The notes under the pieces are model-generated. The model saw nothing but the letters and a program-made list of their open reading frames with translations, did not search any database and was not told where the DNA came from. 64,000 nucleotides of DNA, taken from contig JBBSVN010000004.1 in NCBI GenBank assembly GCA_038046765.1, forward strand, positions 64,001 through 128,000, written 5' to 3'. Shown piece by piece: positions 5,860-61,822 of the stretch. Positions within the stretch are counted from its first letter, which is position 1; each line of letters begins with the position of its first letter. The position numbers were made by a program, and so were the translations under genes. The DNA is from Candidatus Micrarchaeota archaeon (GTDB lineage Archaea > Micrarchaeota > Micrarchaeia > Anstonellales > Bilamarchaeaceae).

Positions 5860-6600
5860 TTATTTTTTCTTATTAAATGATTTTTGATAGGACTTAACTT
5901 TTACAGATATTATTTTTTCTTTTTTAAAGAATTTAAAGGAAACGTAAGCCAAAACAAATATAACAACTATCAAAAGAATAGCTGCCACATTAAGTTCTTT
6001 TGATTCGAGTATAAACGGCTCTGAATTTTGCAGTACCTCTGCCATATCAAAAACACCAGTATTACCTTGGATTTTTGCACTGTAATTACCGGAAATAGCA
6101 AGACTAATCTGACCGGGCATTTTTACTGTATATAAAAAAATCATTTTGCTTTGCAGCAAAGATTTTGCAAGCTCAGAATTGATTTGTTTTTTTGTTAGAT
6201 CTAGTGCTTCAGGATTATTTGATACGCCAATACCCGTAGGCAATTGATTGACAATCGAAGTATAAAATGAAGAAAATTTATCTGTTGGAAGCCTGGTAAT
6301 TTTTGCTCGATAAACATTAAAAGGAAATTCGAAAGCACTTGAAAAAGTATAATAAGTATTATCTGGAATAAGCGAAGTTTGAAGCGTTAAAGTATTATTT
6401 GTAAAAGAACAATTACTGGTTTTTTGACATTCACTTTGCACTATTGAAGTAAAATTCTCATAGCCTTCCACAGAATTTGTTTTTGTAATTTGTGAAAGTT
6501 TTGAAGTACCATCAGCACTAAAATTTTGCAGATATGTTTGTGAAATGCATCCAGATAACAGAACGATCGTAAAAACAATAGCGAATAATAAATTTTTCAT
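5860..6600 (-). CDS. Putative lipoprotein with C-terminal TM
   Basis: MKNLLFAIVFTIVLLSGC lipobox; C-terminal TM and basic tail. Confidence 0.65.
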   Translation of the reverse strand: MKNLLFAIVFTIVLLSGCISQTYLQNFSADGTSKLSQITKTNSVEGYENFTSIVQSECQKTSNCSFTNNTLTLQTSLIPDNTYYTFSSAFEFPFNVYRAKITRLPTDKFSSFYTSIVNQLPTGIGVSNNPEALDLTKKQINSELAKSLLQSKMIFLYTVKMPGQISLAISGNYSAKIQGNTGVFDMAEVLQNSEPFILESKELNVAAILLIVVIFVLAYVSFKFFKKEKIISVKVKSYQKSFNKKK

Positions 6601-6708
6601 AAACAGTACGACACTGATTTTAATTTTAAACCTTTGCATTTGTTACATCTCATTATTTACTACATTTTTGCGTTTCTCTAATGTATTTTCTTATTATATA
6701 CCGCCCAA

Positions 6709-6742
6709 GACGCGACACAAAAACAAATCTTATGGTCGCGTC
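6709..6742. other. GC-rich inverted repeat immediately 3' of the RT gene
   Basis: GACGCGAC-N18-GTCGCGTC perfect 8-bp stem in AT-rich context. Confidence 0.5.
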
Positions 6743-6752
6743 AGTCGAATTA

Positions 6753-7825
6753 TTATATCGGAAACAAACCATTAAATTTTGCAATAACTCTTTTGCGAAA
6801 TTTATAAGTGTCGGCAAATTTGGCATAAGCTAGCCAACCTTCCAAACTTTGCAAAACTTCTGATCGATTAATTTCTCCTTTTTCATATTTCTGCTTAAAT
6901 TTTTCTAATCGTTTCCATATTCTTCCTGAATTACTTTTCTTTAACAAACGATATTTTGGAAATATCCTAAAACCTAAGAAAGTTACTCCTCTTTTTATCG
7001 ATATTAATCGGGATTTTTCAGGATGCAACTCGAGCATCAATTTTTCCTTCAAAAAAATATTGAGTTCATTCTTCCATTTTTGCAGAATATTTTTATCTCT
7101 GTGTAGAATTACAAAATCATCAACATAGCGAATGTAGCATCTTGCTTTCAATTTATGTTTTACAAACTGATCAAGTTCGTTGAGATAAACATTTGCAAAG
7201 AATTGAGAGGTTAAATTTCCAATAGACATACCTTTTCCTTGAACTGGATTCTTGTAATTTTCCAATATTTTTCTTATTAGCAAAAATACAGCCCGATCTT
7301 TTATCTTTCGTTCAATTATGCCCAGTAAAACTTCATGATCTACAGTGTCAAAATAATGCCGAATATCAGCTTTAAGGACATAACCAATTACTGCATTTTC
7401 AGAGCTCTCTCTCTCTCTTCAAATTTTTGGTGGTTAAGTGTGGTCTTTCTCAAGAATTGTTCAAACCGATTAATGGCGTTGTGAGTTCCTTTTCCTTTTC
7501 TGTTTGCAAATGAATCAAAAATAAAATCTTTTTCAAAAATAGGGGAAAGTATATTACATATTGCATGGTGAACAACCCTATCCCTAAAGTAAGAAGCACT
7601 TATCTTTCTTGTCTTTGGATCTCTTACAATAAAGGTACTTAGTGGGGAGGGCGAATAGGTAAACTTTTCTAATTCGTTACTGAGCTTGATTAAATTCTGC
7701 TTTAAATCAGATTCAAATTCTATTACGTAATCCTTCAGGGTTTTCCTTTCCCTTGCCTTTTTGAAGGCAAGTTGGAGGTTTTCAATGGAACATATTTGAG
7801 AATACAAATTCTTGTAAACTTTCAT
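6753..7825 (-). CDS. DGR reverse transcriptase, frameshifted at an (AG)7 tract (356 aa if one AG is removed)
   Basis: MKVYKNLY start; FRDRVVHHA; after the shift YVLKADIRHYFD, GMSIGNLTSQFFANVYL, YIRYVDDF, FLGFR; the two track ORFs join by a -1/+2 shift. Confidence 0.9.
7405..7418 (-). repeat. (AG)7 simple sequence repeat at the RT frameshift
   Basis: ctctctctctctct on the + strand. Confidence 0.9.
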
Positions 7826-7856
7826 AGATGTCAAGTCCCATGGGCTGTAAGCCAGA

Positions 7857-7947
7857 GTCATTTCGTAACCGTTGTCGTGCCTTCTGTTGGCATTGACATT
7901 CTGCCTGTTGATGTCGTTCCTGTTGAAGTTACGGATCAAAGGGCGCA
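7857..7947 (-). ncRNA. DGR template repeat (TR)
   Basis: 91-bp ungapped match to 8416-8506; AAC/AAT-rich codons (RNFNRNDINRQNVNAN). Confidence 0.95.
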
Positions 7948-8204
7948 GAGGTAACCCATCCACTCTAGCAAGCTGCAATTAGATTGCAGATTGCAACGGT
8001 GCCTAGCACCAACACCACAGTTTCACGTTTTCATCAAGCTAGACTACTTGGTGTCACTGTTGAATTTCATTGAGAAATATTTAGATTTCAAAATAGTGAA
8101 AATTTCTAAAGATTTTCATTCATGTCTAACTACCAAAAGGTAGCTAGCACTGTGGATGAGTGTGTGGCCCTAAGCTTACAACCTAGGGAAAAAGATAAAG
8201 AAGG
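7948..8204 (-). ncRNA. Putative structured 5' leader of the TR RNA
   Basis: Hairpins at 7973-7989, 7998-8010, about 8098-8119 and 8126-8147; long-range CATCCAC/GTGGATG complementarity; no ORF of Avd size. Confidence 0.5.
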
Positions 8205-9056
8205 TTACTCTTTTATTTCTAACGCTTTGATTAGTCTGCTCAATGCTTCAAGTTTTTCTGGCCTTACGGTTTGAGCAATATCACTTAAGCTTGCATTAGC
8301 ATCTTCAACTATGGCTCTAAAGGCTTCAAGAGTTACTCCTTTTACTAAAATGCCCTGATTTTCAGGCGCCCGAGCAACCTCAATTTTCGGCGCTGCCTCT
8401 TCGAGGCCAACATACGCCACCCCGTAACCGTTGTCGTGCCCCCTGTCGGCACTGACACCCTGCCCGTAGATGCCGTACCTGTCGAAGCCACGGATCAAAG
8501 GGCGCACTCCTACACCAGAGATTCTGAATAACCATCGTTTTTCTGAATCAGAAAGATTATCAAAAAGTTCTTTTGAGATTTCTAATGGAACTCTAGTTTT
8601 TTCATCTACTTTTCCAGCAGTACCTGATTCTTGAATAAACCCTTCAAGAACTACAACTGATTTTGGCAGAATAACTACTCTTTTATCATTTACTTCAACC
8701 TGCTCTGGATCGATAAATAGACCTACTTTTGCTCTTCCTATTGCCTGCTCTGGAATAGATGAAGCAGGCAATATCCACTCTCTTCCTGCATTATCTTTAT
8801 TTACGTCAACTACATCAATTCCTTTTCTAAATTGACCGCTTTGTTCTGGGTATACTAAAACTTCTCTTGCCCAAGCAGCATAATACCCACTTGGCAATTC
8901 TTTCCATTTTTCTGAACCAACTAAATAATCATCATGAAGAACGTGTGATGGCAATCCACCTTTTTCTTTGACTGCTTTTCTGGCTTCAAGCCAACTTAAA
9001 TCTTGACCAGTTGGAACAATTACTTGTCTTTTTTGAACTTGAACTGTTGCACTCAT
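8205..9056 (-). CDS. DGR target protein (283 aa, probably C-type-lectin-like fold) with internal VR
   Basis: GAGGTG SD before ATG 9056; VR encodes RPLIRGFDRYGIYGQGVSADRGHDNGYGVA. Confidence 0.9.
   Translation of the reverse strand: MSATVQVQKRQVIVPTGQDLSWLEARKAVKEKGGLPSHVLHDDYLVGSEKWKELPSGYYAAWAREVLVYPEQSGQFRKGIDVVDVNKDNAGREWILPASSIPEQAIGRAKVGLFIDPEQVEVNDKRVVILPKSVVVLEGFIQESGTAGKVDEKTRVPLEISKELFDNLSDSEKRWLFRISGVGVRPLIRGFDRYGIYGQGVSADRGHDNGYGVAYVGLEEAAPKIEVARAPENQGILVKGVTLEAFRAIVEDANASLSDIAQTVRPEKLEALSRLIKALEIKE
8416..8506 (-). repeat. DGR variable repeat (VR)
   Basis: 17 mismatches to TR, all at coding-strand TR adenines. Confidence 0.95.
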
Positions 9057-9225
9057 AAATTTAACACCTCTAAAGTTGATATTCTTAGTAAATATATTGT
9101 GCACCGAAGTATTTATAAACCATTCTTTTACATTAAAGTTAACTAAATTGAAAAGATACTTTGGAAAAATCAATAGCGAATTAACAATCACAAACATTTA
9201 AAAGCGTGAGAACATAAATATCGCC

Positions 9226-9519
9226 ATGACAGAAATCAAAAGAAGCTTAAAATGTTCAAGTTGCAACAGTGAGTCAAGTATATACATAAGCACAGAAATG
9301 AATGTTTCTGAACTTTTAATACACGGTAAATGCCCTCGATGTGGCAACTCGCTTCAGATCAATTATAATTTAATTGAGCCTGCAACAACAAACACACCAA
9401 CAACTACAAAAAGCACTAATGAAACTGGTTCAGCAAACCAAATGCAAAACCTTGATGAAACTCTTTTTGACCCGGAGTTTCCAACGCAGAGTATAAAAGA
9501 CTTAATAGAGGGAGAATAA
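9226..9519 (+). CDS. Zn-ribbon protein
   Basis: CSSC and CPRC pairs; acidic tail. Confidence 0.65.
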   Translation: MTEIKRSLKCSSCNSESSIYISTEMNVSELLIHGKCPRCGNSLQINYNLIEPATTNTPTTTKSTNETGSANQMQNLDETLFDPEFPTQSIKDLIEGE

Positions 9520-57621: not shown

Positions 57622-58014
57622 CTAAATCATCCCAAGTATTTCCTGCTTAGTTATCTGCATCCGTGGCAACTGGTCAACTTCTAGTTTTCGATAATAGTAA
57701 AAATATTCGTAGAGTTCGCCTTCGTCTTTTGCGAAAATAATTTTATGGTTGTGGATAACTTGCCATTTCATAAAAAGAGGTAACTCTTCAAAACAATGAA
57801 CATCGTAATTTTTTGCAGTCACATCTAGGTTTTGATAGACTTTTTTCATAATTATTTTAGAGCCTGATTTTGGTGCAACAATGCAAATATCAGTATCCCG
57901 ACCTTCGCTTGAAGTTGAAGAACCAAAAAGAAGTATTCCAAGAATAAAATCATTTTGCAAAAATGAAAAATCAGAATTTAATTTTTCGAGTCTTGAGGTT
58001 GTATTTTGAGCCAT
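57622..58014 (-). CDS. Minimal nucleotidyltransferase (MNT) antitoxin
   Basis: LLFGS...RDTDICIV. Confidence 0.8.
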   Translation of the reverse strand: MAQNTTSRLEKLNSDFSFLQNDFILGILLFGSSTSSEGRDTDICIVAPKSGSKIIMKKVYQNLDVTAKNYDVHCFEELPLFMKWQVIHNHKIIFAKDEGELYEYFYYYRKLEVDQLPRMQITKQEILGMI

Positions 58015-58409
58015 TGGTCCACCATTTCTAAAAAGTCTTCTAAATCAGGCAATAACTCAACCATTGATTCGTAAGCGAGTTCGCTATCCAGGCCTTCGTA
58101 GTTTTGAACGATACGATTTCTTAAACCGCTAGCTACTTTTAAAGATTTAGAGATTGTATCGCTAATAATCTTTTTTTCTAATATGCATTCGATATTTGAA
58201 AAATTATCTTTTGGCAAAGAACTAGTGTCTTTACATATCATAGCAGTTAAATCCATTGAAAATTCAATTATCTGCTCAAACGCCATGTAACACGCAAGCC
58301 GGGATTTTTCATCATCTAAAAAATCGTCTTTCCATTCTTCAAACTCGCCCATACGTTTTTCGATTAACTTGAATTTGTCAGTGTAACGCTTTAATCGCTC
58401 GATTTCCAT
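57978..58409 (-). CDS. HEPN (DUF86/HepT-like) protein with degenerate Rx4H motif
   Basis: GLRNRIVQNY where RNxIVHxY is expected. Confidence 0.8.
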   Translation of the reverse strand: MEIERLKRYTDKFKLIEKRMGEFEEWKDDFLDDEKSRLACYMAFEQIIEFSMDLTAMICKDTSSLPKDNFSNIECILEKKIISDTISKSLKVASGLRNRIVQNYEGLDSELAYESMVELLPDLEDFLEMVDQWLKIQPQDSKN

Positions 58410-58456
58410 AAATTGCCCCTATTAGTTATTTCTAATACCTAACCCGCCAATAATAG

Positions 58457-58822
58457 TTATATTAGTTTAGCATCTTCAAAGTTTTTGAAATCTGGATCGC
58501 CAGTTAACACGATTACTTTTTTCGACCTTGCAGTGGCTAAAACGATGCAATCAGCCAAACCCATTTGATATTGAACTTTTAATTTTGAAGCGTCGGTTGC
58601 AATTTCTTTGCTAACGTCTACTAAAGTCGCTCTTGTTAACATAAATGCTCGTTTTTCTTCTGCTTGATCAGGACGTTCCCTCAAATATTTAGAGTATACT
58701 TCAACTAAATTTATCGATGAAGTAAAAATTTCCTGGTCAGAGTCAATGATTTCTTTTACAATTTTGCCTTTTTCTGAGCCAAAAAAATATTCAAACCATG
58801 CGAAAGAATCAAAAAGATACAT
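58457..58822 (-). CDS. vapC: PIN-domain toxin
   Basis: FDSFAW, E, GLADCIVLA, LTGDPDF. Confidence 0.87.
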   Translation of the reverse strand: MYLFDSFAWFEYFFGSEKGKIVKEIIDSDQEIFTSSINLVEVYSKYLRERPDQAEEKRAFMLTRATLVDVSKEIATDASKLKVQYQMGLADCIVLATARSKKVIVLTGDPDFKNFEDAKLI

Positions 58823-60827: not shown

Positions 60828-60911
60828 GTTTTATAACTTTTTCTTTTTTTTTATTTTAATTTTGTTCGATAGGTATTTAATTGTGCAAGAGCTCATTAAA
60901 TTGGTGAACTT

Positions 60912-61822
60912 ATGGTATTTAGAGAAAAATTTGAAGAGAGAGAGAGAGTACTCCCAAGGCGAATATAACACCAGTTAAAGTAAACGATAATTATGTTCAA
61001 AACGTTGTCGCACTCCTTGCAAATAAAGATGATAAAATTCGGGAAAATGCCAGATCAGAACTAATTGAACTTGCTTCTAAAAATAAAGCTAATTTGGAAA
61101 AGATATGTAACTCGCTAGTTATGGTACTTGGTAAAGTTGGCTCAAGTGACAAGACAACTAAAGAACTTGACTCATTAGATAAAAAAATGAGTCTTATATC
61201 AGACCCAGTTAGTTTACAACTAGAGAAGATTGAGGGTAGAAAAGTGACTTATAACGAAACAATCAATTACCTAGAAAAAAATTCTCCCAAGCTTTTTGAA
61301 GAATGGCTAGGACTATCAACAAAAAGAAGGAAAATATTAGAGGGGAGTACTGAAGAAATAAAAATTTTGGAACATTTTGCAAAAGAGGGTATGATCCCAA
61401 AAGCAACGATTGGAAAGACAGTAGATCTGCTTATGAGTGATGGTCGTGCAACTGAAATGAGCTATGCTGCTTTGGCTATTTTTCAAAAATATAAAATGGA
61501 CATCTCCGAATTTATTCCAAGGATAATAAAAAGTGTTGAGAAGGCAGATAAATATAAAGACCCTGGAGTTTCTGTTTTATGGCTTGCTTTAAAAAATGGA
61601 GATTACTTTTATGACCAGGTAGCAAACCTAATGAAATTGCTAAAAAAACCGAATGCAGGCGAATTTGCAACAACTTTTCTTGCTGAAATAGCCAGTAAAA
61701 ATGAAAAATACTTGAACATGATAAAAAAAGAACTAATAAAAGTTAGAAAAACAGAAGATCTTGAAGACTTACAGGAAAAACGTATCGAATGGTTGGAAAG
61801 AAAGGTAGGTTTAAAGGAATAA
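60912..61822 (+). CDS. Helical (HEAT-like) protein frameshifted at an (AG)7 tract (302 aa if one AG is removed)
   Basis: GGTGA SD and ATG 60912 give MVFREKFEERER; the -1/+2 frame continues STPKANI...VALLANKDDKIRENARSEL into track ORF 61094. Confidence 0.7.
60935..60948 (+). repeat. (AG)7 simple sequence repeat
   Basis: agagagagagagag. Confidence 0.9.

Follow-up and report, generated by a model that had tools for sequence, protein, structure and literature searches.

Out-of-frame (AG)7 tracts as probable DNA-level phase-variation switches of diversity-generating retroelement reverse transcriptases in a Micrarchaeota archaeon

This study concerns a 24-nt sequence, AAAAATTTGA(AG)7, that occurs once on each strand of a 64,000-nt stretch of DNA from a Candidatus Micrarchaeota archaeon, a stretch that we refer to as a whole as the window. 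One copy lies inside the reverse transcriptase (RT) gene of a diversity-generating retroelement (DGR), here termed RT1, and the other inside an orphan gene whose predicted product is an all-helical repeat protein. Our conclusion is that the (AG)7 tracts of this genome are probably simple-sequence-repeat (SSR) contingency switches, which place the DGR RTs under phase variation at the level of DNA. In the proposed mechanism, slipped-strand mispairing during DNA replication would alter the number of AG units, in a genome (89.7% complete) where searches for the mismatch repair families MutS_V and NucS_C found neither, while control genomes matched in both searches. At seven units the RT would be OFF, its product a 145-aa fragment; with one unit fewer or two more, the enzyme would again be full-length. 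Since seven units is an OFF state that a change of unit number turns ON, DGR hypermutation would be silent in most cells and stochastically on in a few, and the orphan gene would be switched likewise by its identical tract. Switching is probably of appreciable frequency in this organism, and the OFF state is probably selected. Sequence comparison shows that the RT tract represents, in this genome, a repeat that is kept at one tolerant loop across a clade of Micrarchaeota DGR RTs.

The source genome (G000) comes from a Micrarchaeota-type DPANN archaeon of groundwater and comprises 20 contigs and 1,515,479 bases at ∼34% G+C. The window is G000:C4:64001-128000, and other contigs are written C1, C3, C8 and so on. 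The preliminary description of this DNA had reported that the 24 nt at window 60925-60948 (+) are identical to the reverse complement of 7405-7428, and they are, with 0 mismatches; the window holds 2 matches to the 24-mer, whereas 100 shuffles with dinucleotides preserved average 0.00. A census of the whole genome found nine dinucleotide repeats of at least five units, of which exactly three have seven units and the rest do not exceed five. All three 7-unit tracts are AG/CT, and each directly follows TTTGA. Their carriers are RT1 (window 7405-7418, minus strand), the orphan gene (60935-60948, plus strand) and a gene outside the window, RT2 (C4:12866-12879, minus strand). RT2 is a paralogous DGR-type RT, ∼70% identical to RT1 (77% in the N half, 68% in the C half), and its tract falls at the equivalent codon, with an identical frame offset. 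Among 3,030,958 strand positions the 10-nt flank AAAAATTTGA is present 31 times (a 10-mer frequency of 1e-5), and at this rarity its recurrence beside a second (AG)7 is unlikely to be due to chance; the flank of the RT2 tract is AAATTTTTGA. Thus the argument of the preliminary description that these are not independent random microsatellites stands, given only three (AG)7 tracts in the genome and so infrequent a flank. No similarity between RT1 and the orphan gene was found beyond the 24 nt.

The reading frames agree with what had been described for RT1 and the orphan gene: the tract is read in the same frame in both, a stop follows 5-6 codons on, and beyond the tract the long open reading frame (ORF) is in the -1/+2 frame, in which a TGA immediately precedes the tract. 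A search of the whole genome for motif and frame added the third TTTGA(AG)7, that of RT2. All three genes are out of frame by the same offset and share the zero-frame reading F-E-E-R-E-R, and in all three the frame is restored by removing one AG unit or adding two. The features of the RT1 locus in the window are as follows.

7405-7428, minus strand: the 24-mer inside the DGR reverse transcriptase RT1, with (AG)7 at 7405-7418, read from the sequence and concordant in the contigs of two sequencing runs, X1 and X3 (see below).
7388-7825, minus strand: RT1 N-terminal part, 145 codons and a stop, with RT motifs 1-2, from the frame reading.
6753-7418, minus strand: RT1 C-terminal part in the -1/+2 frame, 221 codons and a stop, with RT motifs 3-7 and the thumb.
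7864-7947, minus strand: DGR template repeat (TR), 84 nt.
8423-8506, minus strand: DGR variable repeat (VR) inside the target ORF 8205-9197, from comparison with the TR.
7946-8188, minus strand: RT-16 RNA (Rfam RF03019), between the target gene and the TR, 59.8 bits against a gathering score of 50.

The two parts of RT1 match complementary portions of a single Pfam family: the N part aligns with RVT_1 positions 8-64 of 205 (E 0.0077, on its own below the cut-off) and the C part with positions 69-205 (E 6.1e-17). In the zero frame a stop is met 5 codons past the tract, while the continuing frame has its TGA at 7421-7419. We considered and rejected a split gene encoding two polypeptides: there is no start codon near the 5' end of the C-part frame, which makes a two-polypeptide enzyme unlikely. 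An RVT_1 RT beside a TR/VR pair with adenine-specific differences, together with an RT-16 RNA (whose end overlaps the first 2 nt of the TR), identifies the locus as a DGR. The VR is 85% identical to the TR, and the 13 positions at which they differ are all adenines of the TR when the coding strand is read; the restriction to adenines indicates that the element functioned in the past. The TR of RT1 and that of RT2 each match further VR-like stretches elsewhere (C4:137372-137448, C1:24793-24873 and C1:53856-53951), so that each DGR has targets in trans. A further remote VR lies at C4:13796-13882.

The evidence that carries our conclusion comes from relatives of RT1. A search with the RT C part gave matches in 25 of 81 genomes of the family, mostly in open frames of about C-part length, and at most of the family loci the two RT halves lie in different frames. 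The junction between the halves corresponds to the loop between RT motifs 2 and 3, and nearly every family locus has a simple repeat there; among the Micrarchaeota relatives these are (AG)6-12, G8-22, C9-12 or (AC)6. We widened the survey with two further sets of 80 loci, one from one-genome-per-species contigs and one from metagenome contigs; once 9 duplicates had been dropped, the final tally was 168 deduplicated loci having both RT halves. Counting as a tract any long G/C or dinucleotide tract at the junction, these divide as follows.

Tract-bearing junctions, n = 31: 6 in frame, 17 at +1 and 8 at -1 (25/31 out of frame).
Tract-less junctions, n = 137: 135 in frame and 2 shifted in total.

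When the loci are binned by the identity of their C part to RT1, a tract is present in 24/36 loci that are at least 58% identical, with 1/24 in frame, and in 7/132 loci below 58%, with 5/7 in frame. In the more distant RTs, found in Woese-, Nano-, Pace- and Aenigmatarchaeota records, the junction contains no tract and, at 57-60 or 87-90 nt, encodes an ordinary loop. A strong depletion of in-frame loci, suggested by the family sample (3/22), was softened by the larger tallies: the in-frame share of 6/31 tract-bearing loci has P = 0.068 against one third, and among the protein matches described below 15 in-frame sequences with a tract compare with 86 that end within one side of the junction. The metagenome and genome scans contained no near-identical relative of RT1 or RT2. 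Among individual loci, L120, on a metagenome contig, has a junction of 229 nt, in which a G+C-rich insert of ∼120 nt with repeated GAACG-like words precedes C9.

The exact motif, on the other hand, is nearly confined to the source genome. TTTGA(AG)5 was present in 2/401 genomes of the phylum, and in the second of these (G045) it belongs to the in-frame, Glu/Arg-rich tail of an unrelated HerA-like ATPase, which we rejected as a relative of the switch. In four other genomes with (AG)n-bearing RTs, all AG tracts of at least 6 units lie inside RT genes with one exception. In this exception, L201 (G345:C117:3809-3820), an unrelated ORF contains (AG)6 without loss of frame (...IHIETERESTLNEEN...); the next three bases, TAC, are also those after the orphan gene's tract. 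The preliminary description had named homologues lacking the motif as a finding that would speak against a shared signal. The exact motif is indeed not conserved among them; repeats of other types occupy the junction in the RT relatives.

That the tracts change length in DNA is indicated by alleles in which they are in frame. Of the 120 best matches to the RT1 C part in a protein collection, 34 are in frame across the junction, and 15 of these show the translated tract as G3-5, P3, (ER)n or THT. None of the remaining 86 extends across the junction (72 consist of the C part only and 14 start later), some of them possibly being cut by contig ends. The closest comparison is that of P0007, an in-frame protein of 368 aa, with L034, an out-of-frame locus with (AC)6: the two agree at 136/137 residues before the tract and 110/110 after it, and P0007, which is known as a protein only, reads as having one AC unit fewer. 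The scaffold of L016 (G294:C24) has two copies of the tract region, one with G9 and the other with G11, flanking an N gap, and the contigs of L013 and L026 break at the tract; this suggests that the samples concerned were either heterogeneous in tract length or difficult to sequence. L020 (C10) and L120 (C9) are 89% identical, and L042, in frame with an interrupted G5TG4, has an out-of-frame relative with G8 (L122). Genomic tract length therefore varies within the clade, and the existence of genomic, tract-bearing ON alleles in frame implies that switching at the DNA level occurs there. G, C and dinucleotide runs are typical of DNA-level contingency loci and not of known transcriptional slippage sites, and it is of G, C, AG or AC that the junction tracts consist, in A+T-rich genomes where runs of A or T evolve most easily. 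The change of tract type while the junction site stays likewise speaks for phase variation.

It was necessary to consider whether the tract count is itself in error. Were the real count (AG)6, one common correction would repair all three sites, which is the attraction of a sequencing or assembly artefact. Parts or all of the RT1 region are contained, as independently built contigs, in 12 public groundwater runs from four studies, and we compared the contigs of four runs (X1, X3, X4 and X7) over window 6500-9300, bearing in mind that contigs drop rare variants. A single contig of X1, possibly the source sample, spans 6500-9097 with 0 differences and has (AG)7 at RT1. A single contig of X3, a different sample, spans 7087-8931 with 3 substitutions and 0 gaps, and also has (AG)7. 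The low-depth contig of X4 starts 13 nt past the RT1 tract and so does not bridge it. No indel is listed in the RT1 region in any of the four runs, and the joints and loose ends of run contigs in this region are RT relatives from other organisms. The substitutions of X3 are at window 7933, 7955 and 7121, the first of these within the TR. Thus the possibility of a base-calling or assembly error, raised in the preliminary description, is not borne out at RT1. Given also that the remainder of the window consists of dense intact ORFs and that analogous tracts occupy the same RT site in many unrelated assemblies, we regard an artefact as almost certainly the wrong explanation.

The same contigs speak to the present condition of the element. 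All four runs, which come from three studies, have one and the same VR in their contigs: X1, X3 and X7 have 0 differences in it, and the one difference of X4 falls outside it. Such invariance would be expected of an RT that is switched off in most of the population, although contigs conceal rare variants.

A frozen VR would also be expected of a dead element, and all three (AG)7 genes are out of frame. It could be that the repeats are simply mutational hot spots that have recently turned RT1, RT2 and the orphan gene into pseudogenes, with no function as switches. Some relatives have truly decayed: L035 (G263:C7), the second RT copy of its genome, has (AG)7 followed by TGTG, lacks C-part residues 45-126 and has further breaks, and L098, L121 and L133 are shifted without a long tract. 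The orphan gene, having no homologues, gives no test of selection. For the RTs, we estimated the ratio of nonsynonymous to synonymous substitution rates (dN/dS) over the 190 pairs of 20 out-of-frame tract-bearing loci, with synonymous sites saturated (median proportion of synonymous differences 0.85-0.87). None of the 20 loci has a stop or frameshift inside either RT half beyond the one at the junction. Among the unsaturated pairs, the median dN/dS is 0.081 in the N part (9/190 pairs) and 0.095 in the C part (22/190 pairs); RT1 against RT2 gives 0.078 (N part) and 0.149 (C part). On these estimates both halves of the RT are under strong purifying selection (dN/dS about 0.05-0.15), and such selection on the C part implies that the downstream part has long been translated in its own frame. 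Inactivation also fits poorly with the repeat being kept at one site across genera while its type changes, with the ON alleles that carry a tract, and with RT1 and RT2 being otherwise intact despite their old divergence. We therefore consider it improbable that these are merely inactivated genes.

If the genes are translated to full length, the frame might instead be corrected during expression, as in the shared recoding or slippage signal proposed in the preliminary description. What stands of that proposal is that the tracts are slippage-prone sites that decide whether a full-length protein is made; neither a programmed -1 frameshift nor conservation of the exact motif does. A programmed ribosomal frameshift at a shared signal, either -1 or as a +2 shift of the tRNA re-pairing on the AG repeat, would account for the common offset and zero-frame reading F-E-E-R-E-R at the three sites, and a +2 shift could in principle re-pair perfectly on GAG/AGA. 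The window of overlap between the -1-frame TGA and the zero-frame stop comprises the AG tract and 15-27 nt, and it contains no X_XXY_YYZ heptamer; a shift at the A5T3 run would meet the TGA at once. The 100 nt downstream show no structure (z scores -0.49, -0.94 and 0.00, the RT2 stretch starting 15 nt after the tract). Moreover, the homologues need +1, -1 or no shift (17, 8 and 6 of 31 respectively), on various types of repeat. A ribosomal frameshift is thus largely refuted already, and we think it very unlikely.

Transcriptional slippage is harder to set aside. In this explanation the DNA is fixed out of frame and the archaeal RNA polymerase drops one AG in some transcripts, so that a low, constant amount of full-length RT1, RT2 and orphan protein is made from one cis signal, as with the transposases of insertion sequences (IS). 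A 14-nt tract exceeds the RNA:DNA hybrid plus one unit, so (AG)7 is long enough for realignment of the hybrid; an identical 24-mer would slip identically, and a change of one unit rescues either offset. The three tracts of the genome are alike in length and offset, (AG)7 is stable in two samples, and OFF is the dominant state in assemblies, both among the tract-bearing loci (25/31) and among the protein matches, 86/120 of which do not span the junction. However, the out-of-frame state is of mixed direction, with 17 loci at +1 and 8 at -1, and genomic ON alleles with in-frame tracts exist. The tracts are of G, C, AG and AC, not the A/T runs of known slippage sites, and the available text of a 2016 review of recoding contains the word 'dinucleotide' 0 times. 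Nor does the VR vary in the four runs, though rare variants would be hidden in contigs. Weighing these points, we find transcriptional slippage less likely than switching in DNA, and regard it as the main rival explanation.

A more elaborate form of this explanation is a slippage regulon, in which RNA polymerase or a factor recognising AAAAAUUUGA(AG)7 would drop one AG at a set rate, so that genes permanently out of frame would jointly give small amounts of RT1, RT2 and the orphan protein, the last as a lineage-specific partner of the retroelement. We hold this to be speculative and improbable. If true, no transcriptional recoding signal made of a dinucleotide repeat would precede it, and the orphan protein would be the first accessory factor tied to a DGR by a recoding signal and not by gene neighbourhood.

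Several observations nevertheless count against DNA-level phase variation and should be set out together. Length variation of the source genome's own (AG)7 was not seen, the contigs of X1 and X3 both having seven units at RT1. All three tracts have one length, and RT1 and RT2 keep seven units despite saturated synonymous divergence, which is somewhat unexpected under fast independent drift; a shared length is not rare, however, if 7 and 8 are the only OFF lengths available between the ON lengths 6 and 9. The OFF state exceeds the random expectation of 2/3, with 1/24 in frame in the close clade (binomial about 8e-4, for related genomes that are not independent), and this bias would also suit reliance on slippage at the RNA level. 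The identity of the 10-nt flank between RT1 and the orphan gene is without a role in pure DNA slippage. Finally, the orphan gene has no homologues and hence affords no comparison for selection or tract variation.

The features of the orphan gene are as follows.

60925-60948, plus strand: the 24-mer AAAAATTTGA(AG)7 in the orphan ARM/HEAT-like gene, with (AG)7 at 60935-60948.
60912-60968, plus strand: zero-frame start segment, 18 codons and then TAA, the predicted product of the OFF state.
60935-61822, plus strand: the continuing -1/+2 frame, a predicted all-alpha repeat protein, open from the TGA at 60932-60934.

From the ATG at 60912 the zero frame reads M-V-F-R-E-K-F-E-E-R-E-R through the tract, and its stop (60966-60968) lies 6 codons after it. 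A GGTGA at 60903-60907, upstream of this ATG, is probably Shine-Dalgarno-like; the start is well placed, and the tract, 8 codons downstream of it, is in the classical position of a contingency tract. The first in-frame start codon of the continuing frame is TTG 61094, and the 53 codons between the tract and this codon are open, for which the frequency of stop triplets gives P(no stop) = 0.035. In the protein collection the orphan product is present only as a 233-aa form from a downstream ATG, on 3 contigs, and no longer in-frame product was found within the 159-508 aa window searched.

No homologue of the orphan gene was found in 80 family genomes at E <= 1e-4, and both a word-indexed collection and an exhaustive HMMER search of 1.84 billion representatives returned only the gene itself. 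Its protein has no Pfam family at E <= 0.01, and so no HEAT or ARM match at the level of sequence. The structure model is all-helical, with 15 helices and a predicted local distance difference test score (pLDDT) of 64; Foldseek places it with designed armadillo proteins (E 5e-5, template-modelling (TM) score ∼0.3), and the Atlas gives TM ∼0.5 to importin-, PSMD5- and HEAT-type models, which are weak look-alikes. With no homologues and only weak look-alikes of fold, the modelled structure makes 'HEAT-like' valid as a fold class only. Feature matches for the gene in the Atlas score no more than 0.85 and are leads only.

The orphan gene lies among PIN and HepT/MNT toxin-antitoxin genes and further uncharacterised ORFs, neighbours that place it in an accessory region; PADLOC and PHROGs gave no match for the gene or its uncharacterised neighbours. 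The toxin-antitoxin genes are a HepT-like RNase, a nucleotidyltransferase (MNT) and a PIN-domain gene at window 57622-58822, 2-3 kb upstream. The preliminary description had suggested that the shared tract could couple DGR activity to a HEAT-like protein. The analysis does not bear this out: the gene is an orphan that shares only the 24 nt with RT1, the genome-wide TR matches include no VR near it, and we detected no link between it and the DGR. RNA-level slippage would co-express the three genes, but under slippage at the DNA level the tracts switch independently of one another, so coupling is not supported. The 5' region of the gene has no similarity to the rest of the genome outside the 24-mer. 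The 24-nt identity is most likely the trace of a small copying or conversion event by which a second switch was seeded. We do not take it for a dedicated recognition signal, though the shared flank may be functional in the two genes. With the same tract in the orphan gene, the device would extend past the RT in this genome.

The remaining long runs of the source genome are G11 at C1:11169, G9 at C3:85430, G10 at C8:19798 and G8 at C4:76761. These G8-G11 runs were rejected as further frame switches, being intergenic, in 5' leaders or in frame. Two of them (C3:85430-85438 and C8:19798-19807) belong to a pair of paralogous genes with a conserved leader, in which the coding strand has C9 or C10 between a TATA-like TTATAAA and GGTGAT-ATG. 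These leaders may be a repeat switch of promoter or leader type.

To our knowledge, prokaryotes have no dedicated protein-hypermutation devices other than DGRs, and little is understood of how cells keep DGRs in check. The repeat in the RT loop across a DPANN clade suggests a stochastic on/off control of hypermutation, a contingency of second order in which a mutable switch governs a mutator. If this is true, a lineage could diversify its binding protein in few cells and then freeze a successful variant, and the system would be a clear archaeal case of SSR phase variation. It is important to note that automated annotation calls such RTs split or partial, the calls in the protein collection being mostly C-terminal fragments; surveys of DGRs may therefore undercount these elements, or label as dead what is merely switched off. 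In the literature searched, including passages of PMC5758913, PMC5009743 and PMC2831843, we found no account of a DGR RT interrupted by a repeat tract.

Among known systems, the closest in kind are the contingency loci of bacteria. The outer-membrane genes of Helicobacter pylori carry dinucleotide CT repeats. Intragenic poly-G/C loci are found in Neisseria, Campylobacter and Haemophilus (reviews and examples in PMC11868660, PMC5084427, PMC8355987, PMC3315296). As in bacterial SSR loci, the unit number of an intragenic repeat sets the frame, ON and OFF alleles occur among close relatives, the host has no detected mismatch repair, and the tract of the orphan gene is near the 5' end. Unlike them, the host is a DPANN archaeon, and the target is a mutator, the DGR RT, not a surface or restriction-modification gene; the RT tract is in mid-gene, in a fixed structural loop, and across the clade the type of repeat changes at a site that itself is conserved.

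Programmed transcriptional slippage, of which Thermus thermophilus dnaX, Shigella spa13 and many IS transposases are examples (PMC5009743), is similar in that the enzyme of a mobile or retro-element is out of frame, with a minority made at full length, and in that the tract suits realignment of the hybrid. It differs in using runs of A or T with a fixed direction, whereas here the tracts are of G, C, AG or AC, both directions occur and there are genomic ON alleles. The elements with -1 programmed frameshifts cited in the same text, IS3-family transposases, dnaX and viral gag-pol (PMC5009743), also encode one retro- or mobile-element enzyme over two overlapping frames, but no heptamer, stimulatory structure or conserved direction is present here. 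The locus as a whole resembles the DGRs of DPANN and candidate phyla radiation (CPR) organisms, as far as these are described in the available text of Wu et al. 2018 (PMC5758913): a target with a VR, an RT-16 RNA, a TR and an RT, adenine-specific TR/VR differences, and remote VRs matching each TR. The present element differs in its interrupted RT: that text mentions frameshifting indels in TR-VR comparisons only, and no tract that interrupts an RT.

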